Source of the DNA: Desulfatiglandales bacterium
GTDB lineage: Bacteria > Desulfobacterota > DSM-4660 > Desulfatiglandales > HGW-15
Reading direction: 5' to 3'
Assembly (NCBI GenBank): GCA_963667015.2
Contig: CAXXJJ010000001.1
Span: 1,120,001 to 1,184,000 of the forward strand
Length of the DNA stretch: 64,000 nucleotides
The number at the start of each line of letters is the position of its first letter. The first letter of the stretch is position 1. A program made the translations under genes and the position numbers. Of this stretch, positions 4,539 through 55,522 are shown piece by piece. The notes under the pieces were generated by a model. It worked only from the letters and a program-made list of their open reading frames with translations. It was not told the DNA's origin and ran no database searches.

Positions 4539-7067
4539 ATGACGGAACAAGTTTTTACTAGCTGTACAAACGCTGGTCCCATATCGGTCTATGTCAGGGA
4601 TGGGAAAGTAGTCAGAATCAGACCTTTAGAAGCAAAAGATGAAGACTTCATACCCTCCTGGACAATAGATGACGGGAGCAGAAAATACTCACCGCCGAAC
4701 AAGTTTTTTATATCTCCATATGTGCATGCTGAAAGGACAAGGCTATATTCTGAAGACAGGATAAAATATCCCTATAAAAGAGTTGATTTTGATCCTAATG
4801 GCAACAGAAACACCCATACAAGGGGCAAGGCAAAATATGAAAGGATCAGCTGGGATGAGGCCCTTGATATTGTATCATCCGAAATTACCAGAATAACTGG
4901 TACATACGGCTCATCAGCAATTACCGGAATCACTTCATCGCACCATAACTGGGGTATTGTGGGATACAAGATGGGGCCCTTTGCTCGATTTATGAACATG
5001 ATCGGTTTTACACCAATTTTTGACAATCCGGACAGCTGGGAAGGATGGCACTGGGGAGCTACCCACACCTATGGCTTCTACTGGAGACTGGGTATGCCGG
5101 AGCCATATGATCACCTGACCGATGCCCTGCAGAATGCCGAGATGATTGTCTACTGGTCATGTGATCCTGATTCCACAAGGGGAACCTATACCGGGCAGGA
5201 TTCATGCATGTGGCGCCAGTGGCTCAAGGAAAAGGGTGTGGAGATGGTCTTTATAGATCCCCTCTACAACTACACCAATGCAGCCATGGACGGAAAATGG
5301 ATTCCCATAAGGATGGGAACAGGAACCGCACTGGCAATGGCTATTGCATATGTATGGATAAACGAAGATACCTATGACAAGGATTATATAGACTCCAAAA
5401 CGGTTGGTTTTGAGACCTTTAAAGATTACGTTATGGGCAGGGAAGACGGTGTGGCAAAGACACCAGCCTGGGCATCCGAAGAAACGGATATTCCGGTTAA
5501 GACAATAGTTTCCCTGGCAAGAAGATGGGCATCAAAGAGAACAATCCTGGCCGGCGGTACAAGGGGCGGCGAGGGTGGAGCCTGCAGAGAAGCCTATGCA
5601 ACAGAGTGGGCAAGGATGATGGTCCTGCTTCAGGCAATGCAGGGCCTTGGCAAACCCGGAATAAGCATATGGGGTACGAGCATGGGTGCTCCTTCCAATC
5701 CCGATGTATTCTTCCCCGGGTATGCTGATCCTGACGGAAAGGTAGGTTCAACAAAGGCTGCCACCAAAAAGTTTACACCTGCAGAAAATCCTACAAAGCA
5801 GAGGCTTTACAGGCTTACAGTGCCTGATGCCATCCTGAATCCTCCAATTGACTGGAGGGGTGACGGATTCTGCGGAAATGCCATTGAGCAGCAGTTTAAT
5901 GAATATGTATACCCCATGGAAGGCCACTCAGAGGTTAAAATGTTTTACCGGTATGGCGGTTCATTTATGGGTACAATGAGTGATACTAATAAATGGGTTA
6001 AGATGTATCAGAGCCCCAAGCTGGAGTTTGTTGTCAACCAGGACTGCTGGTATAACAGTGAAACCAACTTTGCAGACATCATCCTTCCTGCATGTACAAG
6101 TATTGAGCGTGATGATGTTGGTGAATGGGGTGCTGCCGGCGGATATACGCATCATGCAAGCAACGGATGCAACCATAGGATAGTTGTGAGACAGCAGAAA
6201 TGTATTGAGCCCCTGTGGGAATCAAAGTCCGATTACCGGATCTTTACAGAACTGGCAGACAAACTCGGCAGGAAGGAAGATTTTACTGACGGCAAGGATG
6301 AAATAGGATGGATAAAGGCATTCTATGAGATTTCTGATCTGCCGAAATTCATATCCTATGAAGAGTTTGAGAAAAAGGGATACTTTGTTATACCCATGCC
6401 CGAAGATTACAAACCTACTGTCTCTATGAGATGGTTTGCAGAGGGCAGGGACTGCGATACACCTGACCCGGGCAACCCGAAACGTGGAACAGACAAGGCA
6501 AAGGAGCTGGGCACATACAGCGGTAAAATAGAGTTTGTATCCGAAAGCCTTAAAAAATATTATCCGGATGATGAGGAAAGGCCTGTTTCACCGAAATATA
6601 TTCCCAGCTGGGAAGGACACAGGTCGGAGCTGGCTGAGAAATATCCCCTGGCAATGGTTTCTCCTCACCCGAGATTTACTTTCCATACCCACTATGACAA
6701 GCACACTGACTGGCTCAATGAGATACCCGTGCATCGTGTCTACAAAGATGGATATCCCTACTGGCCTGCGAGAATTCATCCTTCTGATGCCGAACCAAGG
6801 GGAATAAAGAATGGTGATATCGTAAAGCTTTATAATGATCGCGGTGCAACCCTGTGTATCGCCAAGGTAACAGAAAGAATAAAGCCGGGAATAATTCACA
6901 GCTATGCCTCGTCCGCTGTCTATGATCCTCTTGAGCCCGGAAAGGCCGGATCGATCGATCGCGGAGGCTGCGTGAACCTGCTGACGTCATCAAGGATGCT
7001 TTCAAAGAATGCTCCGGGTATGACTCCCAATTCCTGTCTTATTGAAATTGAAAAGTGGGAGGTTTAA
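4539..7067 (+). CDS. Mo-bisPGD oxidoreductase, pyrogallol-phloroglucinol transhydroxylase large-subunit-like
   Basis: SSHHxWG, NPDSWEGWHWG (Ser Mo ligand), GGACR...EWAR and SPHPRF motifs match the Pelobacter transhydroxylase alpha subunit as I recall it. No N-terminal FeS motif or Tat signal. GGAGG RBS. Confidence 0.85.
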   Translation: MTEQVFTSCTNAGPISVYVRDGKVVRIRPLEAKDEDFIPSWTIDDGSRKYSPPNKFFISPYVHAERTRLYSEDRIKYPYKRVDFDPNGNRNTHTRGKAKYERISWDEALDIVSSEITRITGTYGSSAITGITSSHHNWGIVGYKMGPFARFMNMIGFTPIFDNPDSWEGWHWGATHTYGFYWRLGMPEPYDHLTDALQNAEMIVYWSCDPDSTRGTYTGQDSCMWRQWLKEKGVEMVFIDPLYNYTNAAMDGKWIPIRMGTGTALAMAIAYVWINEDTYDKDYIDSKTVGFETFKDYVMGREDGVAKTPAWASEETDIPVKTIVSLARRWASKRTILAGGTRGGEGGACREAYATEWARMMVLLQAMQGLGKPGISIWGTSMGAPSNPDVFFPGYADPDGKVGSTKAATKKFTPAENPTKQRLYRLTVPDAILNPPIDWRGDGFCGNAIEQQFNEYVYPMEGHSEVKMFYRYGGSFMGTMSDTNKWVKMYQSPKLEFVVNQDCWYNSETNFADIILPACTSIERDDVGEWGAAGGYTHHASNGCNHRIVVRQQKCIEPLWESKSDYRIFTELADKLGRKEDFTDGKDEIGWIKAFYEISDLPKFISYEEFEKKGYFVIPMPEDYKPTVSMRWFAEGRDCDTPDPGNPKRGTDKAKELGTYSGKIEFVSESLKKYYPDDEERPVSPKYIPSWEGHRSELAEKYPLAMVSPHPRFTFHTHYDKHTDWLNEIPVHRVYKDGYPYWPARIHPSDAEPRGIKNGDIVKLYNDRGATLCIAKVTERIKPGIIHSYASSAVYDPLEPGKAGSIDRGGCVNLLTSSRMLSKNAPGMTPNSCLIEIEKWEV

Positions 7068-7070
7068 GAG

Positions 7071-7907
7071 ATGGCCAGATATGGAATGATGATAGATGTT
7101 GATAAATGTACAGGCTGTTACAGCTGTTTTCTGGCCTGTAAGGATGAATTCTGCGGGAATAATTATCCGGGATATTCCGCTTCCCAGCCTGCCAAAGGCC
7201 ATTACTGGATGAAGCTTGTGGCCGTTGAAAGAGGTACATATCCCAAGGTGAAGCTTGATTACATCCCTACTCCCTGCCAGCAGTGTGAAAATGCCTCCTG
7301 TATTTCCGGCGGAACTGAGGGTGCTGTCTATAAACGACCTGACGGCATTGTAATAATTGATCCTGAAAAGGCAAAAGGCCAGAAAGATATAGTCTCTTCC
7401 TGCCCATACAGGGTTATCTACTGGAATGAAGAAGAGAATGTTGCCCAGAAATGTAATTTCTGCGCCCATCTTCTTGACCAGGGATGGAAAGAGCCAAGGT
7501 GTGTTGAGACATGTCCCACCGGCGCTATTATATTTGGCGATCTTGATGATCCGGGGAGTGAAATCTCAAAGAAAGCGGCTGCTGAAAGTACTGAGATTCT
7601 GCGTCCTGAGTTCGGGATGAATCCTTCTGTCTGCTACGTGGGACTTCCCAAACGTTTTATAGCCGGTGAAGTCGTATTTGCAGATAAAAAGGACGAGGCT
7701 GCCCAGGATGTCAAGGTTACACTTAATGACGGGGCCAGTGAAATTACCACAAAGACAGATCATTTTGGTGATTTCGAGTTTGAAGGCCTTGAATCCGGTA
7801 AGGAGATAACCGTCAAACTTGAATATACCGGGTATATTTCGCAGGAGATCAGGGTGAAACTCCTCAAGGATCTTAACCTTGGGGAAATTGTCATGCAGGC
7901 AGCGTAA
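7071..7907 (+). CDS. 4Fe-4S beta subunit, transhydroxylase small-subunit-like
   Basis: CxxCxxCxxxC motifs, ERGTYP, YWNEEENVAQKC, plus the extra C-terminal beta-sandwich domain typical of this subunit. Confidence 0.85.
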   Translation: MARYGMMIDVDKCTGCYSCFLACKDEFCGNNYPGYSASQPAKGHYWMKLVAVERGTYPKVKLDYIPTPCQQCENASCISGGTEGAVYKRPDGIVIIDPEKAKGQKDIVSSCPYRVIYWNEEENVAQKCNFCAHLLDQGWKEPRCVETCPTGAIIFGDLDDPGSEISKKAAAESTEILRPEFGMNPSVCYVGLPKRFIAGEVVFADKKDEAAQDVKVTLNDGASEITTKTDHFGDFEFEGLESGKEITVKLEYTGYISQEIRVKLLKDLNLGEIVMQAA

Positions 7908-7935
7908 ATTTATTTGTATTGTTAAATAGATTCGA

Positions 7936-7964
7936 GTAGAGACAGGTTTAAAACCTGTCTCTAC
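7936..7964. repeat. GTAG-type REP-like palindrome
   Basis: GTAGAGACAGGTTT-A-AAACCTGTCTCTAC, perfect 14-bp arms. Confidence 0.7.
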
Positions 7965-7978
7965 AGGAGAATTATAAT

Positions 7979-8665
7979 TTGAACGAAATATTTGCCGAAG
8001 CAAAAGAGGAAAACCGCTCGATTCTCACTGAGATAGAGGCCAAGCAGATCCTCAGCCAGGCTGGAATAGATTGTACAGATACCAGGCTGGCCAGAACAAA
8101 GGAAGAGGCAGTTACCTTGAGCGAAGAGATCGGTTATCCGGTAGTCCTGAAGGTCTCATCTGTTGATATCACGCATAAGAGTGATGCAGGCGGGGTAAAA
8201 GTGGACCTCAAGGACAGGATTGCGGTAGAAATGGCCTTCGATGATATTCTTGCCTCATCAAAGAAAAAATTCCCCCGGGCTGTCGTAGAAGGGGTATCAG
8301 TGCAGGGAATGGCAAAACCGGGTATAGAGATCATTATTGGAATGACAAGAGATCCGCAGTTTGGGCCTGTATTAATGTTCGGTCTCGGCGGAGTAATGGT
8401 TGAGGTGCTGAAGGATGTTGCCTTCAGAACAGTCCCTCTGGGTAAGAGCGACGCCTCTAATATGATCAGGGGCATAAAAGGCTACAAAATTCTTCAGGGA
8501 AACAGGGGGCAGGATCAGGTTGATACCGGGTACCTTGAGGAATTAATAGTTAAACTTTCGGAATTTATTGAGAAAACTCCGGAAATCAAAGAACTGGATA
8601 TGAATCCTGTTTTTGCGTATAAAGACGGGGCCATAGTTGCAGATGCAAGAATCGTCCTGGAATGA
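7979..8665 (+). CDS. ADP-forming acyl-CoA synthetase beta (ATP-grasp) subunit
   Basis: GYPVVLK, HKSDAGGV, DPQFGP, ELDMNP and DARI motifs. Confidence 0.85.
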   Translation: MNEIFAEAKEENRSILTEIEAKQILSQAGIDCTDTRLARTKEEAVTLSEEIGYPVVLKVSSVDITHKSDAGGVKVDLKDRIAVEMAFDDILASSKKKFPRAVVEGVSVQGMAKPGIEIIIGMTRDPQFGPVLMFGLGGVMVEVLKDVAFRTVPLGKSDASNMIRGIKGYKILQGNRGQDQVDTGYLEELIVKLSEFIEKTPEIKELDMNPVFAYKDGAIVADARIVLE

Positions 8666-8814
8666 GTGTATGGACCACAATCTTCTCTTTCGCCCTAGTT
8701 CTGAATGTGTACATCATGCTGCAAATTCTTTCCATAGAACCAATCTCTGAATTTTTCCAGGTTAAATATACAGGGTGTGGCTTAATGTGAAATTTTAGTA
8801 AAAGTACTTGACTC

Positions 8815-8862
8815 TTAAACGAACGTTTGAAATAAACATGTTGTTTAAATAACAGTTGTTTA
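8815..8862. promoter_or_regulatory. Three tandem AAC-N4/5-GTTT imperfect palindromes (candidate operator array)
   Basis: TTAAACGAACGTTTGA, TAAACATGTTGTTTA and TAACAGTTGTTTA, directly downstream of TTGACT (8808-8813) and upstream of the BKACE gene. Confidence 0.45.
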
Positions 8863-8930
8863 GCTATAAACATCTTAATATTGACCTTAAAATAACGTTA
8901 GTTATTTTTATTTTTCGGAGGAAAAAATAA

Positions 8931-9785
8931 ATGTTTAAAATACTGCCAAAAGATAAAATTATTATCACCGTCTCTCTGACGGGTGCATTAGTAACCAAGG
9001 AACAGCATCCTGACCTTCCTGTAACACCTGATGAAATTGCAGAGAATGCAAGGCTCTGTGTGGAAGAGGGTGCTGCTATTTGTCATATTCATGGTAAGGA
9101 TAAAAACGGCCAGAATACTTCTGATGTTGAGGTTTTTAAGGAAATCAAAGAAAAAGTCATGGCCAAATCAGATGCAATCACACAGTTCAGCACAGGCGGC
9201 GGACCTAACCTGAGCCAGGAACAGCGCATTGAATGCCTTGGCGCGGGTCCAGAGATGGCATCACTGAACATGGGCTCTCTAATGAGACTGTCAGGCCAGT
9301 ACAAGGGGACAGCATTCTGCAACCTTCCCGAAGAAATCGAATTATACCTCTCAAAGATGAGGGATCTTAATATAAAACCGGAAATGGAAGTGTATAACCT
9401 GGCAATGTTTCAGGACGTTAACAGCATCATCAAGAAAGGACTTGTAGAGCCTCCCTATTGTATAAATCTGGTGCTTGGCATGCGTTATCAGGGTGCCCTT
9501 GAAGCTACACCGAGAATACTTACAACCATGTATGATTACCTTCCTGATGATTCGATCGTAAACTGTGCTGCTGTCGGTGCTGATCAGCTGCCTATTACAA
9601 CATTAAACATGCTCATGGGCGGGGCAGTGAGAGTTGGCCTTGAAGATAATATCTACTACAGCAAGGGTGTTAAGGCTACCAACATGTCGCTTGTTGCAAG
9701 GACTGTAAGGATTGCCAGAGAGCTTGGCAAGGAGCCTATGTCACCGACAGAAGCCAGGGAGTTTCTCGGACTCAAACCGCTTTAA
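8931..9785 (+). CDS. Beta-keto acid cleavage enzyme (BKACE/Kce, DUF849)
   Basis: ITVSLTGA, PVTPDEI, HIH Zn motif, STGG, ASLNMGS and RVGLEDN. Confidence 0.9.
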   Translation: MFKILPKDKIIITVSLTGALVTKEQHPDLPVTPDEIAENARLCVEEGAAICHIHGKDKNGQNTSDVEVFKEIKEKVMAKSDAITQFSTGGGPNLSQEQRIECLGAGPEMASLNMGSLMRLSGQYKGTAFCNLPEEIELYLSKMRDLNIKPEMEVYNLAMFQDVNSIIKKGLVEPPYCINLVLGMRYQGALEATPRILTTMYDYLPDDSIVNCAAVGADQLPITTLNMLMGGAVRVGLEDNIYYSKGVKATNMSLVARTVRIARELGKEPMSPTEAREFLGLKPL

Positions 9786-9918
9786 TAAGCCCCGGGAACA
9801 GAGAATTTTCCGTTAGACTGATAGAGTGAAGCGGGGCGCGCCTTTAAGACAAAAAAGGTGCTGCCCCGCATGTGCTTGAAGAATAAAGCTTATCAAAATA
9901 AAAATATGGAGATAAAAA

Positions 9919-10896
9919 ATGACAGATAAATTGAAATTGGAAGATATAAAGAAAGTAGCAGTTATCGGTGCCGGAACCATGGGTCATGGTATTGCCCAGG
10001 CCTTTGCCTATGCAGGTTACGAAGTAAATATGATGTCAAGAACCCAGGAAACCCTGGACAGGGCAATGTCCCTGATCAAGGCAAGCCTTGAGGCTATGGC
10101 TGGTGCCGGTCTTGTTGATGGAGACAAGATTCCAGCTACACTCGAACGCATTACTACCTGCCAGAGCATTGAAGAAGCTGCACAGGGTGTAGATATTGCC
10201 TTTGAAACCATGGTTGAAAACAAAGATGCAAAGATCATGGTTTTTAGCGAGCTGGATAAACATTGTCCTCCTCATGCCCTGATCGCCAGCAACACAACAT
10301 TCCTTAATCCCTTTGAATTCGCGGACACAAGCAGAAATGACAAAATTCTCATTGCTCATTTTTACGCACCACCGCAGATTATTCCCCTGGTTGATGTTGT
10401 AAAGGGACCTGAAACCGACATGTATAATGTTGAACTTATGGTTGAGCTTCTTAAGAGTATTGGTAAAAAACCGATTCTTTTTAAGCAGTATGTATCAGGC
10501 TATGTTATCAGCCGTCTTCAGCTTGCCCTTCAGCGTGAAATCTACTTCCTGCTTGATGAAGGTCACCTTACTCCAAGAGAAATTGATGATGCATGTATCT
10601 GGGGCCTTGCAATGCGTATGATGATAGTCGGTGCAGTAGGCCGAATCGATTACGGCGGTATTGGCCTGAGCGTAAACAACCTTAAGAATCCTGCGTGTGA
10701 TGCCACACCGATTGAGTATATGCCAAAGAAGATTTTTGAGTTGTTTGATCAGGGGCATGTTGGCGTGAAATCCGGCAAGGGTTTCTATGACTATGAAGGA
10801 AAACCCGAGGCCGAACTCTGTTCTATCAGAGATGAGAAACTTCTGAAGATGCTGAAGTTCGCCATGGATCTCGGAGACGCATTACCGAAAAAGTAA
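9919..10896 (+). CDS. 3-hydroxyacyl-CoA dehydrogenase family protein
   Basis: GAGTMGHGIA Rossmann motif, ASNT, HF..P and GVKSGKGFYDY. Confidence 0.9.
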   Translation: MTDKLKLEDIKKVAVIGAGTMGHGIAQAFAYAGYEVNMMSRTQETLDRAMSLIKASLEAMAGAGLVDGDKIPATLERITTCQSIEEAAQGVDIAFETMVENKDAKIMVFSELDKHCPPHALIASNTTFLNPFEFADTSRNDKILIAHFYAPPQIIPLVDVVKGPETDMYNVELMVELLKSIGKKPILFKQYVSGYVISRLQLALQREIYFLLDEGHLTPREIDDACIWGLAMRMMIVGAVGRIDYGGIGLSVNNLKNPACDATPIEYMPKKIFELFDQGHVGVKSGKGFYDYEGKPEAELCSIRDEKLLKMLKFAMDLGDALPKK

Positions 10897-10908
10897 TAAG
10901 GAGAGATC

Positions 10909-12177
10909 ATGAGTCTTGAAAAAGTATATATAGTAAGTGGAGCCAGGACCCCTATAGGGCGCTTTGGCGGTACATTGAGAAGCGTGCCTGTCTATAAGTT
11001 TGCTGCAGTGGTCCTGAATGAAGTAATCCGCAGGGCAGGCATAGAGGCTGATTCTGTGGATGAGGTGGTTATGGGGCACGCCTACCAGAACGGTGAATGT
11101 GCCAATGGTGCCCGTATGGCGCTTCTGGAAGCAGGCTGGCCGGTATCAATTACAGGGCTGGTTGTGGACAGGCGCTGCTGCTCCGGTCTTGATGCAATCG
11201 CAATGGGCGCAATGAAGATCCAGACCGGTAATGCCGATATAGTGGTAGCCGGCGGTATGGAGAGCATGAGCCAGGCCGAAATGTATATCCCCGGTGACAT
11301 CCGCTGGGGACTTGGTGGCAAGAATGATGAAAAATTCGGATTTATGCCAAAGGGCCATGGTGCTCTTGCCATGTGGGGTATCCCTTTCTATGACAGGATA
11401 CAAAGAGGCCGTGTTATGGCACAGCCCATCGAAAGGTTTGGTGAACTTAACTCGATGATGACCTGGGCTGAGGCTGCTGCCAAAAACGAAGGGATTACCC
11501 GTGAAGCGGTTGACGAATGGGCTTATAACAGCCATCAGAAGGCAGTGAAGGCTATGGAATCGGGTAAGTTTACAGAGGAAATTATTGGTATTCCGGTCCC
11601 TCAGGCAAAGGGTGATCCTGTTCTGTTTGATAAGGATGAAACACCGCGTGCCGACACCACCATAGAAAAACTGGCCAAACTTAAAACCATATACGCGGAC
11701 GGTGTCTGTACAGCAGGGAACTCTTCCTCAGAGAATGACGGCTCCGGTGCCGTGGTTCTTATGAGTGAAAAGAAGGTCAAAGAACTTGGGCTTACGCCCA
11801 TGGTTGAATTCAAGGCCTTTGCTGCAGCCGGTGATGATCCTACTCTCACATATCCTGCAGTTCCTCTCGCAGTAAATAAGGCACTGAACAAGGCCGGGAT
11901 TACACAGAACGATGTAGACCTGATCGAGATTCAGGAGGCCTTTGCAGCTCAGACACTTGCTGATGCAAAACTTCTCGGTCTTACTCCGGACGAGTGTAGC
12001 GCAAAGGTAAATGTCAATGGTTCAGGCATTTCACTTGGGCATCCGATCGGAGCAACCGGTGCCATGCGGCTTGTTACTTTGATACACGAGATGGTTCGCA
12101 GAAACTCGCGCTATGGTCTTGAGACGATCTGCGGTGCTGGCGGACTGGGCGTTGCTGCGGTATTTGAAAGAAGTTAA
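10909..12177 (+). CDS. Thiolase (acetyl-CoA C-acyltransferase)
   Basis: RTPIG, CCSG, GNSSxENDG, EAFA, GHPIGATG and CGAGG. Confidence 0.9.
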   Translation: MSLEKVYIVSGARTPIGRFGGTLRSVPVYKFAAVVLNEVIRRAGIEADSVDEVVMGHAYQNGECANGARMALLEAGWPVSITGLVVDRRCCSGLDAIAMGAMKIQTGNADIVVAGGMESMSQAEMYIPGDIRWGLGGKNDEKFGFMPKGHGALAMWGIPFYDRIQRGRVMAQPIERFGELNSMMTWAEAAAKNEGITREAVDEWAYNSHQKAVKAMESGKFTEEIIGIPVPQAKGDPVLFDKDETPRADTTIEKLAKLKTIYADGVCTAGNSSSENDGSGAVVLMSEKKVKELGLTPMVEFKAFAAAGDDPTLTYPAVPLAVNKALNKAGITQNDVDLIEIQEAFAAQTLADAKLLGLTPDECSAKVNVNGSGISLGHPIGATGAMRLVTLIHEMVRRNSRYGLETICGAGGLGVAAVFERS

Positions 12178-12216
12178 GGCTTCAGAAAAAAAGTATTTTA
12201 GGAGGCAAAATTTAGT

Positions 12217-12984
12217 ATGGAAGATATTTTTAGTCTGAAAGGGAAAAATGCCGTTGTACTTGGCGGGGCTGGTGGGCTCGGTGAGGCCATAGTTGAAGGT
12301 CTGAGTCAGTATGGCGCAAAAATTGTTATTGCAAGCAGAAAGCTTGATGCCCTTGAGACGGTAGCAGCAGATATTGCAGCAAAGACAGGCGGCGAAATTA
12401 AAGCCATGACAGTTGATGTTACTGATGAAAGAAGCATGGCAAAGCTTGTCGGAGATGTGGTAGAAAAATTCGGAACCATTGATATCCTTGTAAATGCCAT
12501 GGGGCTGAATATAAAAAGAGATGCACTGGATTATCCCATGGAAGACTGGGACAAGATATTCAACATAAATGTTAAAGGCACGATGATCGCCTGTAAGCAG
12601 TTTGGCTGCATAATGAAGGAGCAGGGAAAGGGCAAGATAATCAACCTTTCGTCAGTAAGAGAAGTAAGAGGCTATACCGGCGGAAACTCAGCCTATTGTG
12701 CCACAAAGGGTGCTGTAGGTATGATAACAAAGGCCCTGGCACTTGAGCTTGCTCCCTATAACATTTATGTGAACGCTATCGGTCCCTCTCTTATTATTAC
12801 CCAGGGAACAAGGCATATACAGAAAGATCCATCTCTTGCCCAGAAATATTCTTCTCAGATACCCCTGGGAAGACTTGGAATTCCGGCTGATCTGAAAGGT
12901 GCGGCAGTATTTCTTGCATCGAATGCATCTGACTTTATTACTGGACAGACTATATTTGTTGACGGCGGTTTGACTGCAGGTTAA
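12217..12984 (+). CDS. SDR oxidoreductase (possible phloroglucinol reductase-like)
   Basis: GGAGGLG, YxxxK (YCATK) and VDGG. Specific function inferred from context only. Confidence 0.8.
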   Translation: MEDIFSLKGKNAVVLGGAGGLGEAIVEGLSQYGAKIVIASRKLDALETVAADIAAKTGGEIKAMTVDVTDERSMAKLVGDVVEKFGTIDILVNAMGLNIKRDALDYPMEDWDKIFNINVKGTMIACKQFGCIMKEQGKGKIINLSSVREVRGYTGGNSAYCATKGAVGMITKALALELAPYNIYVNAIGPSLIITQGTRHIQKDPSLAQKYSSQIPLGRLGIPADLKGAAVFLASNASDFITGQTIFVDGGLTAG

Positions 12985-13006
12985 ACGGTTGTTCATAAGT
13001 TGGATT

Positions 13007-13047
13007 AAAGAAGGGGCAGCTTTTATAAAGCTGTCCCTTCTTTTTTT
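13007..13047. terminator. Bidirectional terminator between SDR and marR
   Basis: AAAGAAGGGGCAGCTTT...AAAGCTGTCCCTTCTTTTTTT between convergent genes. Confidence 0.75.
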
Positions 13048-13492
13048 ATTCGGGCAGGGGCTGAGATATTTTTATCAGCAATTCGTTAAGCTGATTGAGT
13101 TCTTCTCCGGACAGGTTCTTATATTGAAAAACATGCAAATCAAACAGAGATTTTTGACATTCAGTAACCAGTTGTTTTCCCTTAGGGGTGAGTTTGACGA
13201 TTACAATTCTGCGGTCAGTTCCGCTGGTTCGTTTTACAAGTCCGGCATTTTCAAGCTCTGCCACCATCCTTGTAATATTGGGCTGAAGGCATACGGTTCT
13301 TGATGCAATATCCTGAATTGTCAGGGCCTGGTTTTCGGACAGCAGTATTGTTTCCAGCAAATCAAACTGGGCTACTGTTATTTCCTTATTTTTGAACAAC
13401 TTGTTTGATCCGACATGCATAATGTTGTAAGCACGTTTGAGATTTCTGGAAGTCAATTTTTCTATTGGCATCTTTGCTATTGTATTACTCAT
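13046..13492 (-). CDS. MarR-family regulator
   Basis: ITVAQF..L, NITRMV..LE..GLV.R and DRR...V.LT.KG. Confidence 0.9.
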   Translation of the reverse strand: MSNTIAKMPIEKLTSRNLKRAYNIMHVGSNKLFKNKEITVAQFDLLETILLSENQALTIQDIASRTVCLQPNITRMVAELENAGLVKRTSGTDRRIVIVKLTPKGKQLVTECQKSLFDLHVFQYKNLSGEELNQLNELLIKISQPLPE

Positions 13493-13686
13493 TACAGCCC
13501 CTTAGGTTTTTTCTTTTTTGCTAATATATAAAATGGGAGAAGTCACTTGAGAACAGTATATCTACATTGTGAAGCAGATGTATATCAATGATATATTGTA
13601 TGTCAAGGATTTTTTCCGTGTATATTATAGAGCGTCATTAATTATATCTTTAAATTAATTAATTACGCTCCTGTTATTAAAACCTT

Positions 13687-15357
13687 TCAGTATCTGGAGT
13701 GCAACGGCACCATATTTCCATACTTCTTAACAAGTTTTTCCCAGTTGCCGGGAAGCATTATTTTTTTTGTAATAAATGAATTTTTTATATCTCCAACACC
13801 TTGAACCAGACCTGTCCAGTTTCCCGGTCCGCCAGCTACAACAATATTTAATCGACCGGTATCATTTCCATCCCGAGATTGTCCATAACTGTTAATAAGA
13901 AAATTTCTTAATTTCTCTTTACTCCACCCCTCACTGGCCAGGGTTTCAGCCTGTTCCGGATTGACAATAAAGCAGGATATTCCTTCCGGGCCCAGTTCAG
14001 ACATTGACTCTGCAATTGCCTCAGCATCATTACCCCCTGCTGTGTTCTGCGTGAAGCTGTTCGGGAAGAATAACGTAAGCGAATTTTCATCCTTTTTAAA
14101 TCCATGGTCTGCATGAAGAGGCTCCCATGGACTCTCTTCTTCATTTTCTCCGATAACCAGTGCGTTTTTAAAGGGATTCCCTAATGTACCCATATCTTCG
14201 ATACCTTTGCGCATTCCGCCGATATTCTGGATAATCAACCCTATCGTGCGGCCGATAGCGCCGTTGGCGAGACTCCCGGGGCTCAACGCGCCTGCCCCTG
14301 AATTTACATGGATCTGATTGCGCACTGGGCCGTTAATAATAAAAAAAGGTCCCCATGATCCGGTGCCCGATTCAACTGCATTAATACCGGATTCCTTATC
14401 TGCAAGGGCTTCGACAGCCGCTATAATGACAGGCATATGGGTTGGAAGCGCACCTGCCATAACCGCATTTATGGCTATTTTTTCAACCGTTGCCTTTCCC
14501 TTCATTGGAGGTATTTTTGCAACTACATGATCTGCCGATAGATCAGTTACCTTCAACATTTCCATTACCGCTTTTTCTGTCGGCGGAATTACAGGCAGAC
14601 CGTCCGTCCATCCTTTCCTGAAAAAGAACATATTTATGTTTTCATAATCCCCTTTAAATGCAATTTTTGGAGGAGGTTCAGTACTGTATTTCGGTGATTT
14701 TTCATGATCTGACAATGGTTCTGTCAATGATTCAAGTATGCCGGACATTGCTTCACCTATACCGGCTTCAATATCTTCCCTTGAGGTAATTTCACTTCCC
14801 AGGTTAAGCACCTGCCTTCGAATTACCGGCATTCCCTTTTCCTTTGCTGCAGACTGCAACTCGCCCATAAACCCCTGATTCACCAGTAACACGACCGGTG
14901 TTCCAAGCTCCTCGATGGATATACCATTGTATGTGAGGATCCTGGAGCAGGAGCCTCAGCTTCCTACGAGCAGGATGACAGCATCATTGCCCTGTGCCCA
15001 TTTTTTGAAGGTCTCAGCGCGTTTTGTATCAAGCTCTCTCTCCTTCTGTTGATCAGAACTGTATATATTGATTTTAGCATCAGGATACATGGAGCCCAGC
15101 CATTCCTTTAATGAAACGGCAATAGGGATGGCAGAGTGTTTGTAATTGGCAAATAAACCGATATTTTTGCCTTCCAGACTTTCCAGTCTTGGAGAAATTC
15201 CCTTAAGTATCTCCTGGTCGGTCTCACCCCATGGATTGAGAACTTCATATTTATTGTTTGACTGGTCCGCAGCAAACGAAATCCCGATGTAAGCAGTGAA
15301 GAAAAACACAACCATACAAAGCGTTTCCAGGCTTCGGAGAAAAGCGCGTCTGTGCAT
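13687..15357 (-). CDS. UGSC-motif selenoprotein, paralogue A (556 aa, Sec at TGA 14956-14958)
   Basis: ORFs 14956..15357 and 13687..14892 are in frame. Read-through gives LLVGS-U-GSCSRILTYNGISIEELGTPVVLL. A hairpin follows the UGA. C-terminal GWTDGLPVIPPT / A.NAVMAG domain. Confidence 0.85.
14902..14946 (-). promoter_or_regulatory. SECIS-like hairpin (paralogue A)
   Basis: On the minus strand: TCCAGG/CTTGGA, TCCTC/GAGGA and ATGG/CCAT stems, starting 10 nt after the UGA. Confidence 0.55.
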
Positions 15358-15370
15358 AAATTATACCTCC

Positions 15371-17068
15371 TTAATACCTTACATATGTCGGAACCATGGT
15401 TCCATACTTTGCCTTCAGGCTATCCCAGTTTTCGGGCAGCTTGATTTCTCTTGTGACAAAATAGTTGCCAAAGTTGCCTGCACTCTGCAGCAGGCCCATC
15501 CATACACCCGGCCCACCCGCAACAACTATTGCAAAATCTTCATTTTTCAGGTTTCCCTGCCTCCTGCTGAGGACATCCGCGCCATTGGACTTTTCAATAA
15601 TAAAATCTTTTACCTTCTGCTTGGACCACCCTTCGCTGGCAAACCTGTTTGCATGATCCGGGATTACAATCATTGTGGACAGGGCTGTAGGGTTCATACC
15701 TGCCAGAGTTGTGGCAATCCCTTCTGCAGTTGTCTGGGCAGGGATTGTCTGGGCATAGCGGTTAGGGAACATTACTGTAACGGTGCTTGAACCCTTCTCG
15801 TAACCGAATTCAACATTAAGAGGCTCCCATGGACTGTTTTCTTCATTTTCTCCAATTACAAGGGTATATTTTAAAGGATCTCCCAGTGTGCCCATATCCT
15901 CTATTCCCTTTCGGGCCCCGCCAATATTCTTTACAATAAGCCCCAGGGCTCTTCCAATTGCTGCATTTGCTATATTCCCGGGACTCATCATGCCGGAACT
16001 GCAATTGACATGAATATCATTCCTTATGGGACCATTAATGATAAGCAGCGGCGCCCAGGACCCGGTGCTTACCTCAAATGTATCAAAACGCGTTTTAGGA
16101 TCGGAAAGTGCCTCTACCGCTGCTAACAGTACCGGCATGTGGGTCGGCAAAGCCCCTCCCATTACTGCATTGACTGCAATTTTTTCGACAGTGGCCTTGC
16201 CCATTCTGGGTATCAGCTTTGTCACGACATGATCAGGCGATAGGTCTGTTCCTTTCATCATTTCATCAACCCTGGCCTGTGTCGGCGGGGTAATCGGAAG
16301 ACCGTCGCCCCAGCCTTTTCTGTAGTAAAACTGGTTTACCTGATCATATGTTCCTTTAAAGGCAATCTTTGGTTCTGTCTCAGTCCTGATTTTGGGGGAT
16401 TTTTCTTCATCGGTCAGAGGATTGGTAAGTGCACCGATAATATCATCAAGTACCTCATCTATACCTGTTCTGATATTTTCGGCATCGGTTGATTCACATA
16501 ATATTGTTGTTCCAAGTGCGCGAACTCCCGGCATGCCTTTTCCTGATGCTGCGGAGTGAACGTCGTTTAAAAAGCCCTGATTCGCCAGTAGCACGACCGG
16601 CGTTCCAAAGTCCTCAATGGCTACGCCATTATATGTGAGGAACTTTGTGCAGGAGCCTCAGTCTCCTACCATGCCGACGACGGCATCAACCCCTTTGGCC
16701 CAGGCGGAAAACTCTTCTTTGTTTTCTGTTTCCGATTCGTCGACATTGGGCAGTGTGGAATGAAACAGTATGGTCTCAATATCCGGAAATCTTTCTTTAA
16801 GTCTTTTCTCAACCTCGTTGGCGATAGGCACAGCCGCACGTTTGAAGTTGGCAAAAATACCGATTTTTTTACCTGCCAGTGAACCCACCCTGGGGGATAT
16901 GCCCCTCAGCGGAATCGGATCAACATCTGCCCATGGGCTGAGAACCTCATACTGCGTCTCAGCGGCGGCAGTATTCCCGGTCGGCTGTTCAGGTGTATTG
17001 CCGGAACACGAGAAAGCGGCCGCAATGGTAAAGACCATTATGGCTGTATGTTTGATAAACCTTAACAT
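15371..17068 (-). CDS. UGSC-motif selenoprotein, paralogue B (565 aa, Sec at TGA 16658-16660), predicted lipoprotein
   Basis: ORFs 16658..17068 and 15371..16594 are in frame. Read-through gives GMVGD-U-GSCTKFLTYNGVAIEDFGTPVVLL. Lipobox-like AFSC. Paralogous to A on both sides of the UGA. Confidence 0.88.
16606..16647 (-). promoter_or_regulatory. SECIS-like hairpin (paralogue B)
   Basis: On the minus strand: CAAAG/CTTTG and TCCTC/GAGGA stems, then AATGGC-GTA-GCCATT. The apical loop begins with G, 33 nt after the UGA. Confidence 0.65.
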
Positions 17069-17596
17069 GTCAATTCCCTCCTTTTTATTTGTTTTAGTTT
17101 TGTTTTATATATTTATCATAAATTCGATAAAACAGGGGATAATCATATTATCAAATATCTGCATTTTTCAGGATTAAAAACATGACACATTTTTACTTGA
17201 CCAACCCATTTCCTTTGATGTAATCATGTTTAAAAAATATATCAATAATATGTAAATATTTATAAGGCAGTCATTCAATCATGTCAAGGGATAACCAGAG
17301 AGATGGTTGCAGGTCATTTAAGCACATGTACGTTTTTGTTCGTCCGCCATTGTGTCCACTACAAAATCCTTTAACCGGAAAATAATGAATTACCTGCGAA
17401 GGCAGAAAGGAAATTTCCGGGGAGCACATTTGATGAATATGATTCCCGGGAAACGCATGTATTATGTTTATTCCTTCTTTAAAAAATTACAATAATATGG
17501 CAGACTGTGCGACACTAAAAGAAACACCAATGGAATACTTATGATTTTATGCCGGATATGGCTGGATGATATCCGGAGAAGCAGAAAGGAGCGGTT

Positions 17597-18031
17597 ATGA
17601 AAACAAGACGGTCGACAGGTATTTGCACAACTTTATTATTGATAGCAGCTATTTTTTCTTTCCTGATTTTTTCTCCGTGTTATGGAGCGGAAGAAGGGAT
17701 TCCAAGGATAACCATCCAGGAATTGAAAAAGATGATGGACGACGGTGAAGAGGTGACTGTAATCGATACGCAGCCAGAAAATGTATTCGTTAAGGGGCAT
17801 ATAAAGGATTCTGTTAACATACCCTGGAAATCTCAGCTTGCCCTTGAAGATGTCTGGTCGATCCCGAGCGGTATCCCTATAGTAACATACTGCGCATGCG
17901 GCGCAGGGGAAGCCGACAGTGCCGACTTTGCCAAGCAGCTGATGAAAATGGGCTATAACGATGTGAAGGTTCTTAAGCACCCTGCAATTGAGGGATGGAT
18001 TAAAGCCGGATACCCGATAGAAAAAGAGTAG
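17597..18031 (+). CDS. Exported single-domain rhodanese-like protein
   Basis: Signal-peptide-like N-terminus, VIDT, GHI, YCACG, GY..V..L and W..AGYP. Confidence 0.85.
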   Translation: MKTRRSTGICTTLLLIAAIFSFLIFSPCYGAEEGIPRITIQELKKMMDDGEEVTVIDTQPENVFVKGHIKDSVNIPWKSQLALEDVWSIPSGIPIVTYCACGAGEADSADFAKQLMKMGYNDVKVLKHPAIEGWIKAGYPIEKE

Positions 18032-18121: not shown

Positions 18122-19450
18122 ATGATTGTACCAAACAATGCTGTTATGAACAATGATCCGCGAAAAAAAATTGATATTGCGCCTATGGGTTTCCTGCAGA
18201 TATTTATTATCGCAATAACCGTAGGACTGAACGCCCTGGATGGTATTGATGTACTTTCAATAAGTTTGGCTATACCCGATATTGCACGTGAATGGGCACT
18301 TAACGATACTGTAGTCGGCTTTATACTGAATATGGAACTTATCGGGATGGGGATAGGCTCCATATCATTGGGATGGGTTTCCGATTCAACAGGACGCCGG
18401 AAAACAATGATCGCCTGCCTTATAATGATGGCAGCAGGCATGTTCATGGTGGCAAGATCATCTGGTGTAGTAGAGTTATCGATCTACAGGATTATAACCG
18501 GTCTGGGCATCGGCGGCTTATTGGCGGCTATCACGGCAATAACAGCGGAGTTTTCCAACCTTAAAAACAGGGCTCTTTGTATTTCCATAATGGCTATCGG
18601 CTACCCCATAGGCGGCATTGTGGGATCCAGGATAGCCGGATGGCTGTTGCATACCTATGGCGACTGGCGGTTGATATTTTATTTTGGTGCGGTTGTAACT
18701 ACTTGTTTTATTCCTCTGTTTTATTTTGCAGTCCCTGAATCAATCCACTGGCTTATGCGTAAACAACCGAAAGGGGCGCTGGACAAGGTAAATAAGACAC
18801 TTAAACGTCTGGGGCATGACGTTATTACAATGCTGCCTGATATTACAACAGACATACGGAAAAAATCCTACGGCGATTTATTCTCGCCCGGGCTTATCCG
18901 TATTACAACAATTATAACCGTTGCCTACTTTCTGCAGATCAGCACCTACTTTTTTATACTTAAATGGGTACCCAAGGTAGTTGTAAAGCTGGGATTTTCC
19001 TCTGCGGACGGAGCCGATATGATGATGTTTGTCAATATCGGCGGAATGCTGGGCGGAATAATCCTTGGATTACTGACCCTGAGAGTTGGTGTGAAGATAC
19101 TCACTATAGGAACTCTGGTGTTTTCGGCTGTTTTTATCACCATTTTAGGGACAACAAGCGAGCTGAATTACTTTGCAGTATTTGCGGTCTTGAGCGGTCT
19201 TTTCGGTAATGCGGGTATAGTCGGTATGTATGCCCTGTTCCCGGCGGCCTTTCCCACTCATGTAAGATCCTCGGGTACCGGTTTTGTGCTTGGTATCGGA
19301 CGTGGAGGTGCATACCTGACGCCTGTCATGGTAGGGATCATGTTTGATCATGGTTTCAGCCTGCCGGTGGTTACCATGCTCATCAGTATCGGGGCATTAG
19401 TCGGTGCATGTGTGCTTTTATTTTTAAAACTTAATAAAAATGCAGATTAA
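18122..19450 (+). CDS. MFS transporter (aromatic acid:H+ symporter-like)
   Basis: 12 TM segments, DG.D, G..SD..GRR motif A and PES..WL. Confidence 0.85.
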   Translation: MIVPNNAVMNNDPRKKIDIAPMGFLQIFIIAITVGLNALDGIDVLSISLAIPDIAREWALNDTVVGFILNMELIGMGIGSISLGWVSDSTGRRKTMIACLIMMAAGMFMVARSSGVVELSIYRIITGLGIGGLLAAITAITAEFSNLKNRALCISIMAIGYPIGGIVGSRIAGWLLHTYGDWRLIFYFGAVVTTCFIPLFYFAVPESIHWLMRKQPKGALDKVNKTLKRLGHDVITMLPDITTDIRKKSYGDLFSPGLIRITTIITVAYFLQISTYFFILKWVPKVVVKLGFSSADGADMMMFVNIGGMLGGIILGLLTLRVGVKILTIGTLVFSAVFITILGTTSELNYFAVFAVLSGLFGNAGIVGMYALFPAAFPTHVRSSGTGFVLGIGRGGAYLTPVMVGIMFDHGFSLPVVTMLISIGALVGACVLLFLKLNKNAD

Positions 19451-32011: not shown

Positions 32012-35000
32012 ATGGGCGACTCATGGTTTGACAAAAATGAAAAATGTTCAAATATTGATAAAGATAAAGATAAAGAGCTATCCACGATAATAAGGGGCAT
32101 AGCGTCCGAATTTGATGTTGTCATGGGAAACCCTGAACGTGTGAGGAAAAACTGTTCCAGGCTCCTTGAACTATTGGAAAACCCGCCGGCCTCAATTGAT
32201 CTTGAATGCCTGAATCAGCTTGTCCCCCTGTTGCCAAAGAAGATGGGAGATATAGTCTCTCCACTGTTTGACCTTTTTTATGAAATCACAAAAAAGGTTA
32301 AAGATCCCTGGCCTTTTCTTCAGGGGCTTCTTTCTGTCAGGGATGCAGATCTTGTTTTAAAGGCGCTGAATTTCGCGGCCTCCCTCGCACAGTCAGGGGC
32401 CTTAACCGTTGATCCCAAGGTGTTAGGCTTCTTCGCCGATAAAATTGAAAGTGACGGAAGTCCCCTTAGTAATCCCGAAGGCCATGCGGTAACTGCAAAA
32501 ATAGTACACTGTTTTTCCGACGGATTCTCCGCCGATGTAAAAGATGGTGCAATGGATATTTTCCTGCATCAAAAGGATATCAAATTACGCAGACTGGGAG
32601 CCCGGATTCTGGATTTACCGGGAGTGCCGGTGCCGGAGGATGTAGCGCTTGAGGCCCTGGGTGAGGATGCATTCCGGTTTTTCATGCCTTACCTGTTATT
32701 TACCAGGGCATCCTATACGGATCTCCTTCAAATCCTTCCATTGCCGGGAAAACCCGCACCGGCATTGAATCTGTTGCGTTCAGCCGAATCATCATTCGGA
32801 GAACAGCTTCTTAAAGAAATTGTATCGCGCATGGGGTGGCAGAATATCAATTTCGGGATTGAGAGCAACAGACTGACCAGCCTAAAAATCGGTGATTCAT
32901 TTCCGTTAATTGTCTCCCATGAAGAGGCCATACTCTTTGATTCAAGGAGTGATGTCAGGCGTGATAATGAAATATATCTTTTCATTGGTCATGGCGGATT
33001 TCAAGGTGAAGGTAAACGGGAGAACCGGGATAAGGATCCGGTGATACTCTTTCGGGCCTACAATCTTTCCCATGCCAGGGTCCTGGCCGATTTTAACGAT
33101 ACAGGGCCCCTTTCATCTGCAAAAGTGGACCGGATGCTGTCGGCGATGGACGGTATAGTTTCCGATTATTTAGCCCTTTTTTCTTCACACTCAACCGAAA
33201 GTTCAATATTGCCCGATGTCTACAGCAAACTTAAAAATAAGATTTTATCTGAAGTGGAAAAGATGAAATTAAAGGGCAGAACAACTCCTGATCTGTCCAG
33301 GCTTGTTCTGATGTTCGAGGATCCCCCAAACCTTGGTGCTGTTCAAACCTTGCACGGGCTGAAGCGTTACCTTCATCAAAAAGGACTTCGGCTGGGATTT
33401 CGGCTGATAGATTCAAGCTGTGCAATGAACCGTACGGTGTCAATGATTACCGCGTCTGAAAAAAAGGTCCTTAATGTATTATCATGCATCAGTTATATTA
33501 ATTTTGAGCCGGGAATGGAAGATGTCGATCCAACACATGTTCCCTTCCCGGTCAGGATTGTTGCTGATGCATATGCACGGCAGATGCTCAGGGGAGAAAA
33601 GGATTTCCCGAGTATAAGGATATTCTGTTACGGGAACGAAATTAATTACTACATATCTTTCAGAAATCACCCTGTGTTTCTGAGAATCGATTTCTCGCAC
33701 CCTTTAAACAACGGAATGATTGATCTAGAATATTATGGCGTGAGCAAGACAGAGATTGATCATCATCCTAACCTGTCCCTTGATGCTATTAAATATTTTT
33801 TTCAATATCTCGGATTCGATGTCGATGTTAACCAGACCCACATCAAGGTCCGTTATGATAAAAACATGACCATGGACACAAAGGATCTCTATGAGAAGGC
33901 AGAGATTCTGTTCAACCTTGTTCCCTACTTTATGGACATTGACTGGGTTATCAGTTCGTTAGATCTGGATAAAGAGTCCTGTGGCCTGGTTACCGAAGCA
34001 TGGGCAGGGTTTTTCAGGAAGTGGGGAGTTCTTCCTCTGGATCAGTTTCTTACAGCTGACCGCCGGGGAATTCTTGTGAATCGAAAACCCGGCCCTACCG
34101 GAGATAAGGAAATTATATGGAACGGAAAAGCTCCCTATACTGACCAGACCGGCTCACCATTGCCGGAAGATCTCCTGGCCTGTTTAAACAGATCTTTGCA
34201 GGAGCTTGGCCTTGATCTCCATCGTTTTTCCGGCCAGTTGTCAGACAATGAGATTGGCCAGCTTCAAATAGAAAAATTGATTCTTAGGCCCTTCAGGGAG
34301 GCTGTTTCCCTGGGCGGTATTTTGACGAAAGCAGGAGGTTTGTCCCGGGCACCTTCCGATAAATTCAAATATGAATGGGAAGCGGAACGTTTTGCTGAAA
34401 TACTTTCTGAGAAGGGGGATGCAATGATATCTTCCTTTTCGCTTGCCGGGCTTGTCAGGCCGCTTGAGCAGAATACATATTTTATAGATTCCGGCAGTAT
34501 TAACGGATACAGGATTCAATATGCGTCCGTACCGGTTTTCGGCAGCATAATCGATATCTACACCCTGAGAGATGAAGAAGGTATTATACGTTTTTCCTTT
34601 TTTACAAATGGCTCCACCCTTTGCCGAAAGAGAGAAGATACCGGGTCGCAGTGGAGATCAAACTTCAGTGTCGATATCCATGAACTGGCAGGCCTGCTCC
34701 GGGAAGGCAACTGCCTGATGCCGGGAATGGATGCAGTTGAAGAGTCTCCCGAAGAGATAAAATCTGTCTGTGATAAATTCAGGCAGTTTAACCGAAGGCG
34801 GGAGCATATGCCCTTTAAGGGAGAACGGATCATAAAAGGGGTAAAGGTTTCGCCTGGACGGGTTGTCGGAAGGATCCTCTTCAAAAGCTCAGAAAACAGA
34901 TCTCCGGAAGATTTTAAGGGCCGGATCCTTGTCACGCCGGGAATTCACCCCGAGGATAATGCTTTGATATACAACTCATCAGGTATAGTTACTACCGGTG

Positions 35001-55345: not shown

Positions 55346-55367
55346 ATATAGGTAGGCAAGTCGCTTG

Positions 55368-55454
55368 ATAAGGGCAAACCGTTCGAAAGGGCGGGACGCA
55401 AAGCCGATGGCCTAAGTTCTCAGTTAAAAGGGAATATGGTTGCAAGGTTGCCGG
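55368..55454 (+). ncRNA. c-di-GMP-I (GEMM-I) riboswitch
   Basis: AGGGCAAACC...GAAA...GGGACGCAAAGCC...CCTAA...ATGGT.GC..GGTTGCCG consensus. Confidence 0.88.
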
Positions 55455-55522
55455 GCGGATTAGCACACTCCAGAGTGCTGATTTGGCCAAAGGCTAAAGC
55501 GGAAAATCTCGGAGGTGCTTAA

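Follow-up and report, generated by a model that had tools for sequence, protein, structure and literature searches.

We analysed a window of 64,000 nucleotides from the genome of a Desulfatiglandales bacterium (contig CAXXJJ010000001.1, positions 1,120,001 to 1,184,000) and found that four called open reading frames (ORFs) on its minus strand are two neighbouring genes, here called B and A, each with one in-frame TGA. Both genes very probably encode selenoproteins of the long form of the UGSC family, with the TGA read as selenocysteine (Sec). The explanation that we favour, at a probability of roughly 55%, is that A and B are periplasmic Sec/Cys enzymes that act on a small substrate, with the UGA decoded as Sec and the N-terminus serving for export. 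The two genes and their main parts are as follows.

15371..17068, minus strand: gene B, predicted long-form UGSC selenoprotein gene, read-through of 565 residues, stop codon TAA at 15371-15373
16658..16660, minus strand: in-frame UGA of gene B, predicted Sec137, motif GDUGSC
16424..16924, minus strand: UGSC domain (PF24696) of gene B, residues 49-215, 86.8 bits, flavodoxin-like in the model
15374..16396, minus strand: C-terminal 'Unknown_1' domain of gene B, residues about 225-565
13687..15357, minus strand: gene A, predicted long-form UGSC selenoprotein gene, read-through of 556 residues, stop codon TGA at 13687-13689
14956..14958, minus strand: in-frame UGA of gene A, predicted Sec134, motif GSUGSC, inside the PF24696 match

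The preliminary description of this DNA had proposed two UGSC selenoprotein genes hidden behind four ORFs and fused to a large domain, and its ORF coordinates, frames, 63-nt bridge and motifs all proved exact. In gene B, the ORF at 16658-17068 (-) closes with the TGA at 16658-16660 and shares its frame with the ORF at 15371-16594 (-); in gene A, the ORF at 14956-15357 (-) closes with the TGA at 14956-14958 and shares its frame with the ORF at 13687-14892 (-). The distance from the TGA to the GTG called as the downstream start is 63 nt in both genes. This bridge codes for U-GSC-TKFLTYNGVAIEDFGTPVV in gene B, where the preceding residues are VGMVGD, and for U-GSC-SRILTYNGISIEELGTPVV in gene A, where they are LLVGS. 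Furthermore, the motifs GW(T/G)DGLP(V/I)xPPT and A(I/V)NAVM(A/G)G were found in both proteins. A Shine-Dalgarno-like AAGGAGGG lies 7-8 nt upstream of the ATG of gene B. Because gene A starts 13 nt past the TAA of gene B, with a GGAGG 8 nt ahead of its own ATG, B and then A are probably carried on one transcript.

The sequence support for Sec consists of the open frame, a domain that spans the UGA, relatives with Cys, the Sec machinery and a constraint at the RNA level. The Pfam UGSC model (PF24696, gathering cut-off 25 bits) crosses the TGA in both proteins, with 81.2 bits in A (residues 38-212) and 86.8 bits in B, and the read-through frames together with this match bear out the two genes that had been proposed. 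At an E-value limit of 0.001, 4,992 relatives were found among 1.84 billion representatives, and the best 150 were inspected. The Sec column is covered by 60 of them, with 30 Cys, 8 Ser, 8 Ala, 5 Gly and 9 other residues; homologues with Cys at the UGA position, which the preliminary description had anticipated, thus make up half of these full-length relatives and read mostly GDCGSC there. The remaining 90 start past the TGA, as truncated gene calls would. In addition, the TGA is conserved in all nine gene B orthologues from other genomes in which the Sec region was read (73-90% identity), and the peptide of the 63-nt bridge is conserved in all close paralogues. The PF24696 matches and the conserved TGA lie well outside what chance would give. 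In the genome (7.19 Mb, 4 contigs), selA, selB, selD and the tRNA-Sec (selC) all score above their curated cut-offs (selB 390 bits, selD 356 bits, tRNA-Sec 74 bits), so that selB, selC and selD are present as expected, and selA lies in the window where it had been placed, outside the locus of genes A and B.

56831-58249, plus strand: selA (selenocysteine synthase), Sec machinery, 623 bits against a cut-off of 268

The selD gene (G000:C1:1618368-1619294 (+), L017) carries one in-frame TGA, so selenophosphate synthetase would itself be a selenoprotein in this genome.

If the TGAs were true stops, each gene would yield two products, a short peptide that is exported and, from the GTG onwards, a separate protein of about 400 aa, or else the locus would reflect gene decay or assembly errors. 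Gene callers do split these genes nearly everywhere: the best 120 protein-database hits are all 385-426 aa long, correspond to the C-terminal piece and are called 'hypothetical' where named. The terminal TGA of gene A, too, does serve as a stop. On the other hand, PF24696 crosses the TGA, the bridge peptide is conserved, full-length Cys homologues exist, the TGA is kept in the gene B orthologues of nine other genomes, and no Shine-Dalgarno-like sequence was found ahead of the GTG downstream of the TGA. Moreover, an independent sequencing run (X3, from another study) has the whole stretch of 13000-17700 in one contig and keeps the same tandem with 73 differences; neither TGA is altered among the differences listed, a further 136 lying outside them. 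We consider true stops, decay or assembly errors very improbable. The family is cut at the UGA almost everywhere, and since truncated calls run across the best 120 hits, thousands of selenoprotein genes would be hidden.

Downstream of each UGA, the sequence can be folded into a hairpin that resembles a selenocysteine insertion sequence (SECIS).

16606..16647, minus strand: SECIS-like hairpin of gene B, 10 nt past the UGA, two stacked helices and an apical mini-hairpin
14904..14945, minus strand: SECIS-like hairpin of gene A, register as in gene B, with weaker support

The gene B hairpin gave folding z scores of -1.7 to -2.0 relative to shuffled sequences. In an alignment of 13 sequences, from which exact duplicates and L058 (identical to L057) were left out, the shared helix is 89.9% paired and three pairs have changed on both sides. 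Synonymous positions were then compared in nine sequences, those of gene B and eight orthologues; the tenth, L053, was missed by the anchor motif and dropped. In the 20 codons past the gene B UGA, 14 of 19 degenerate codons that are invariant in amino acid are also invariant in nucleotide, compared to 18 of 288 elsewhere (Fisher p 7e-12, a value overstated since the sequences are kin, with the contrast drawn within the same sequences). These 20 codons are also the most constrained 20-codon window of gene B. The mRNA just past the gene B UGA is under RNA-level constraint.

A UGSC-containing protein was reported from an Olavius symbiont and from Hyphomonas neptunium (PMC1976440), was among the most abundant selenoproteins in the Global Ocean Sampling (GOS) data (Zhang and Gladyshev, 2008; PMC2398784), and is listed as a family in surveys of 2016, 2022 and 2026 (PMC5029168, PMC9312934, PMC13188914). 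For the UGSC-containing protein, a table of Peng et al. (2016; PMC5029168) gives 26 and 33, which we take to be organisms and genes. A full-text literature search for UGSC returned, in the passages it covered, no paper assigning a function, in agreement with the preliminary description, which had called the family described and functionally uncharacterised. The tandem, fused and exported pair had been taken there to suggest an undescribed extracytoplasmic Se/thiol redox system. Fig. S1A of Zhang and Gladyshev (2008) reports a 'UGSC/Unknown_1' fusion with the block AVNGVMAGC.PEYMP....VNGP in GOS reads, Sulfitobacter and H. neptunium, and Unknown_1 alone in Mycobacterium leprae, Methanothermobacter and others. 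Compared by eye with that text, gene B has KIAVNAVMGGALPTHMPVLLAAVEAL...LIINGPIRNDI and gene A has KIAINAVMAGALPTHMPVIIAAVEAL...FIINGPVRNQI. Because A and B carry the Fig. S1A block (KIAVNAVMGGALPTHMPV...IINGPIRN), the fused architecture is already described; the function of the family is unknown in the literature found.

A and B further resemble the UGSC family in having U-G-S-C with Sec first, a PF24696 score above the cut-off, and an interchange of Sec and Cys among homologues. They differ from the described fusion in that the conserved Cys of MAGC is Ala in both proteins (it is Cys in 5 of the 23 paralogues of this genome) and in that both have predicted export signals. They differ from the described family in the number of copies in this genome, which is 23, and in a modelled Sec domain that looks flavodoxin-like, a thioredoxin-like fold having been suggested for the family. 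Against the NCBIfam equivalog NF041046 (about 147 aa), A reaches 53.4 bits and B 66.3 bits compared to a cut-off of 125; by these scores, A and B are domain-level relatives and not members of the equivalog.

Both N-termini are of an export type, and A and B are likely exported, as the preliminary description had it; judged by eye and by hydropathy, A has a Tat-like RRAFL and B a lipobox-like AFSC.

17006..17068, minus strand: export signal of gene B, residues 1-21, lipobox-like AAFS-C, by eye and from hydropathy
15271..15357, minus strand: export signal of gene A, residues 1-29, twin-arginine (Tat)-like HRRAFLRS, hydrophobic core, ending in SFA-A, by eye

A motif ending in Cys that is comparable to the gene B lipobox was seen by eye in 6 of 9 orthologues. 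When the mean Kyte-Doolittle hydropathy over 12 residues was scored as hydrophobic above 2.0, 19 of the 23 paralogues had a hydrophobic N-terminal stretch, and the other four, which lack one, stayed below 0.6. Exported bacterial selenoproteins include periplasmic formate dehydrogenase and [NiFeSe] hydrogenase. They also include DsbA/DsbG-like selenoproteins, which are listed in PMC1976440. A and B would share with these three the presence of Sec and, in an anaerobe, a place of action beyond the cytoplasm; they differ in that folds and cofactors are unrelated and none of the three has a UGSC or Unknown_1 domain.

Structure prediction of the fused protein, which had been suggested as a way forward, gave an AlphaFold2 model of the gene B protein (74-sequence alignment) with a predicted local distance difference test score (pLDDT) of 91.5 and a predicted template modelling score (pTM) of 0.89, disorder being limited to the signal region. 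In a comparison with solved chains, the best matches of residues 63-223, at Z 9-11, were three-layer folds of the flavodoxin, CheY, TIR and Rossmann types; no thioredoxin-fold chain was among the matches listed. The resemblance of the modelled Sec domain looks generic and flavodoxin-like, rather than thioredoxin-like as suggested for the family in PMC2398784; the 'thioredoxin-like' label of the preliminary description gains no support from these matches either. In the model, strand 129-135 precedes Sec137 and helix 138-153 follows it.

The C-domain modelled alone (346 residues) reached a pLDDT of 92.0 and a pTM of 0.91. No Pfam or NCBIfam model matches the 'Unknown_1' C-domain of gene B. Among 48,161 chains compared with VIA-align, none reached Z 5 or more, and the best score was Z 4.8 over an 84-residue sub-domain, Z under 5 being the range that the tool calls uninformative. 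The widest alignment was to the alpha part of class I fumarate hydratase (VIA Z 4.0, root-mean-square deviation 5.0, 179 residues), for which Foldseek also gave a weak match (E 8e-4, template modelling score 0.28-0.35). Foldseek and VIA searches with the whole model matched the N-domain only, and a sequence-profile search of the PDB returned nothing relevant, its best match being a designed P-loop protein (E 8e-4) on the N-domain. The C-domain has a confident model and no convincing solved structural relative. Its near-invariant polar positions are T263, N368, R373, E407, E409 and W414.

The Sec site was also compared with that of PrdB/GrdB, the selenoprotein B of proline and glycine reductases (TIGR04483, PF07355). 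In both, a UxxC motif stands between a hydrophobic strand and a helix, and the helix leads to a G-(I/T)-P-(T/V)-V strand. Paralogues that differ in substrate are well known among PrdB/GrdB. In contrast to these systems, no PrdA/GrdE-type pyruvoyl partner was seen here, and A and B have export-type N-termini, whereas Prd and Grd proteins are cytoplasmic. The genome also encodes a PrdB/GrdB-like selenoprotein of its own (C4:1779089-1780360 (-), L061:928-2199), with FPV-U-PGC and a long C-terminal extension, which scores 103 bits to TIGR04483 (cut-off 300). Its Sec aligns, weakly, with Sec137 over 37 columns.

The genome holds 23 full-length paralogues of 551-613 residues. A TGA stands at the homologous site in 20 of them (19 UxxC, 1 UGGA), and the other three are without Sec. 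These three have Leu, Ser or Thr in that column, which rules them out as Cys back-ups. There are 22 matches to PF24696 in the genome; because all of them sit within long open frames (557-621 aa), a stand-alone UGSC protein is absent from this genome. In a quick tree, A and B fall within a five-member GDUGSC clade, in which A pairs with C1:279358 and B with C4:1836906. Since each has another closest paralogue in this tree, a recent tandem duplication giving rise to A and B was ruled out. Reviews put the largest bacterial selenoproteome at 39 genes (PMC9312934, PMC5029168). One genome here apparently spends selenocysteine on 20 copies of one family of unknown function, and set against 39 genes this suggests that the family must therefore matter for the way of life of the lineage.

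Two paralogues are unusual in their frames. One (G000:C4:1502322-1504151 (-), L041:6323-8152) has two adjacent TGAs at the Sec site (GG-U-U-GC) and two further TGAs near the C-terminus (GGH-U-S-U-APF), beyond which the sequence still looks family-like; this paralogue may carry more than one Sec. Two TGAs were also seen in some relatives from other genomes. The other (L040, G000:C1:78500-80752 (+)) has no signal peptide and shares a frame free of TAA and TAG with an upstream CBS-domain-like stretch, from which only TGAs set it apart; the stretch may belong to a further read-through or to an upstream gene of its own that stops at a TGA.

Relatives were found in all 10 other genomes of the genus, with at least 13-23 matches each, and in 29 of 61 genomes of the taxonomic family at E up to 1e-20. 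For a wider view, 76 distant loci from many phyla were sampled, at least 579 stretches being confirmed overall. These loci include Thermodesulfobacteriota, Acidobacteriota, Chloroflexota, Betaproteobacteria, Binatia, Rokubacteria, Methylomirabilota, Poribacteria, Methanobacteriaceae, Streptomycetaceae and Oscillospiraceae. Hidden Markov models built from each half of the protein were used to find the N- and C-domains in them. A UGSC-like domain was found next to the C-domain in 66 of the 76 loci, fused or as a separate gene; both orders occur, with C ahead of N in about 19 loci. The other 10 loci have the C-domain only. Because the two adjoin in 66 of the 76, the UGSC-like domain and the C-domain appear to form an obligate pair.

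The genes that flank A and B are a rhodanese, a transporter of the major facilitator superfamily (MFS) and a MarR-family regulator.

17597..18031, plus strand: rhodanese (PF00581) with a signal-type N-terminus, divergent from gene B
18122..19450, plus strand: MFS transporter, downstream of the rhodanese
13046..13492, minus strand: MarR-family regulator, 194 nt downstream of gene A, membership of the unit uncertain

The preliminary description had tied a tandem pair to these neighbours and to an aromatic-degradation cluster. When flanks of 1.5 kb were checked in nine other genomes, a rhodanese and/or an MFS transporter adjoined the gene B orthologue in seven (rhodanese in five, MFS in six), and a MarR regulator directly followed gene B in one (L052). 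L062 and L063, the two closest public relatives, and paralogue L050 likewise have a rhodanese next to them. The rhodanese is likely a functional neighbour of gene B. The proposed link is supported for the rhodanese and the MFS transporter, and for gene B only; links to the aromatic cluster and to marR stay hypothetical. Within these flanks, none of the nine related genomes has a copy of A beside B, which rules out the A-B pair as a two-gene unit conserved across them; with A and B not being mutual closest paralogues either, the tandem pair as a unit was abandoned.

The aromatic cluster at 4539-12984 (+) encodes a pyrogallol-hydroxytransferase-like molybdoenzyme (PF21423, PF00384), a 4Fe-4S subunit, an ATP-grasp_5 protein, a BKACE enzyme, a 3-hydroxyacyl-coenzyme A (CoA) dehydrogenase, a thiolase and a short-chain dehydrogenase/reductase (SDR), which we take to resemble a gene set for anaerobic trihydroxybenzene/phloroglucinol degradation. 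A second pair of molybdenum (Mo) enzyme and Fe-S protein lies beside paralogue L042.

The exported rhodanese raises the possibility that A and B are exported selenoproteins whose Sec/Cys site carries or binds something instead of catalysing redox chemistry, either as a rhodanese-fed persulfide/perselenide relay or as a ligand for a soft metal, with the MFS transporter moving the cargo. The rhodanese genes by the gene B orthologues in five of nine genomes and by L062, L063 and L050 fit this idea, as do the many relatives that retain the second Cys only. The periplasm is also without NAD(P)H. Among the other paralogues of this genome, however, a rhodanese is found at L050 alone, and it is absent from most distant loci. 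The conserved C-domain, with its invariant T, N, R, E, E and W, has the look of an enzyme, or of a pocket that binds an organic substrate, and distant relatives lie within catabolic clusters of the carboxylic-acid and CoA type. We regard such a relay or metal site as possible but doubtful.

The neighbours of the other paralogues in this genome were surveyed with 113 proteins. MFS transporters lie beside them at four further loci, carboxylesterases, tannase and other alpha/beta-hydrolases at four, molybdo-/tungsto-enzymes at three, glycyl-radical enzymes and DUF169 proteins at two each, and a tripartite ATP-independent periplasmic (TRAP) system at one. The neighbours of the 76 distant loci, surveyed with 115 + 70 proteins, include TctC receptors (11 proteins), family III CoA-transferases (7) and flavoenzymes of the old yellow enzyme type (4), in addition to Amidohydro_2 proteins, SDRs, Mo hydroxylases, PrpD, LarA and aconitase. 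Flavoprotein reductases of the size of TrxB stand beside three distant loci (L068, L075, L082). The shared theme of the distant neighbours seems, from their assignments, to be the catabolism of carboxylic and aromatic acids. Glycyl-radical enzymes (PFL-like with Gly_radical) recur by long-form UGSC genes at four loci in at least three genomes, namely L066 and L086 in other genomes and L033 and L046 in this one.

These neighbourhoods, together with the widest structural alignment of the C-domain, also suit a hydro-lyase, an isomerase or another non-redox enzyme of carboxylic acids, in which catalysis would reside in the C-domain, with the UGSC domain as a subunit of regulatory or accessory function. 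The alpha part of class I fumarate hydratase (7xky_A, 5l2r_A) gives the widest alignment, occurs in two-subunit and fused forms, and has carboxylic-acid substrates that fit the neighbourhoods of the distant relatives, where family III CoA-transferases, TctC receptors, PrpD, LarA, aconitase and Amidohydro_2 are found in other phyla. The two domains of the UGSC long form likewise occur as separate subunits in either order, and relatives without Sec or Cys exist. Nevertheless, the structural scores are weak and in the uninformative range (Z under 5), and no sequence similarity to the hydratase was found. Class I fumarate hydratases use three Cys ligands for their Fe-S cluster; these ligands are not conserved here, no Cys being present among the near-invariant columns to match them. 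Furthermore, a costly Sec at 20 of 23 copies argues for a catalytic residue. A non-redox enzyme of this kind is unlikely.

In the periplasmic Sec/Cys enzyme that we favour, SelB with Sec-tRNA would recognise the hairpin about 10 nt past the UGA and insert Sec. Export to the periplasm would be directed by the N-termini, which are of lipoprotein type in B and Tat-like in A. In the flavodoxin-like domain, Sec stands where a helix begins; once exported, it would serve as the nucleophile, and the Cys three residues on (Cys140) would be its resolving partner. The small substrate would be held by the large C-domain. The analogy is with selenoprotein B of the glycine and proline reductases, whose forms are substrate-specific. 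Gene B could further have the exported rhodanese and the MFS transporter as partners, for example in sulfur/selenium transfer or in re-reduction of the selenylsulfide. The Sec/Cys catalytic mechanism itself, drawn from analogy, is a tentative part of this proposal and is held with clearly less confidence than the proposal as a whole.

Several observations weigh against this explanation. No reductant that could reopen a selenylsulfide is evident in the periplasm. Sec or Cys is lacking at the first position in three paralogues of this genome and in roughly half of the full-length relatives, although many keep the second Cys. Because so many relatives are without Sec or Cys there, a dithiol-type redox cycle would not be universal in the family. 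The likeness to PrdB is weak (against TIGR04483, cut-off 300, A scores 16.6 bits and B is without a hit; hhalign probability 11.6%), and the C-domain of A and B is without a conserved Cys or His, the Cys of 'MAGC' being Ala. At the RNA level, the gene A hairpin, with z scores of -0.45 and -1.4, folds no better than shuffled sequence, the covariation is modest (three double-change pairs were matched by 7 of 500 shuffles), and no Rfam SECIS family was found at gathering thresholds or, over 13600-17100, at E up to 10. No invariant third partner was found around the 21 other paralogues or the distant relatives, and their neighbours are heterogeneous. Finally, the insertion of Sec, the export and the activity of A and B are all predictions, inferred from sequence.

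A bolder extension of the periplasmic Sec/Cys enzyme, which we consider improbable, would make the family a radiation of substrate-specific periplasmic selenoenzymes, in which a flavodoxin-like Sec module and a substrate-binding domain whose fold lacks a solved relative cleave plant-derived aromatics or esters independently of thiols. The 20 or more copies per genome in this lineage of sulfate reducers would each stand by a different esterase, transporter or catabolic gene, the cleavage outside the cytoplasm would be reductive or nucleophilic, and an exported rhodanese would recycle some copies. If this were true, one family would be the main reason for a record-size bacterial selenoproteome.

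The analysis adds the 20-fold use of Sec in one family, the conserved module of gene B with rhodanese and MFS transporter, the split forms and the C-domain model. Handles on function are offered by the rhodanese and MFS transporter by gene B, by the natural split forms, and by the confident C-domain model without a solved relative.

Elsewhere in the window, a cyclic di-GMP (c-di-GMP-I) riboswitch lies at 55363-55455 (+), upstream of an ORF at 55523-56368, and scores 72.7 bits (gathering score 35). A 1,692-codon ORF was also observed at 32012-37090 (+); after it come three ORFs with 749, 654 and 684 codons.

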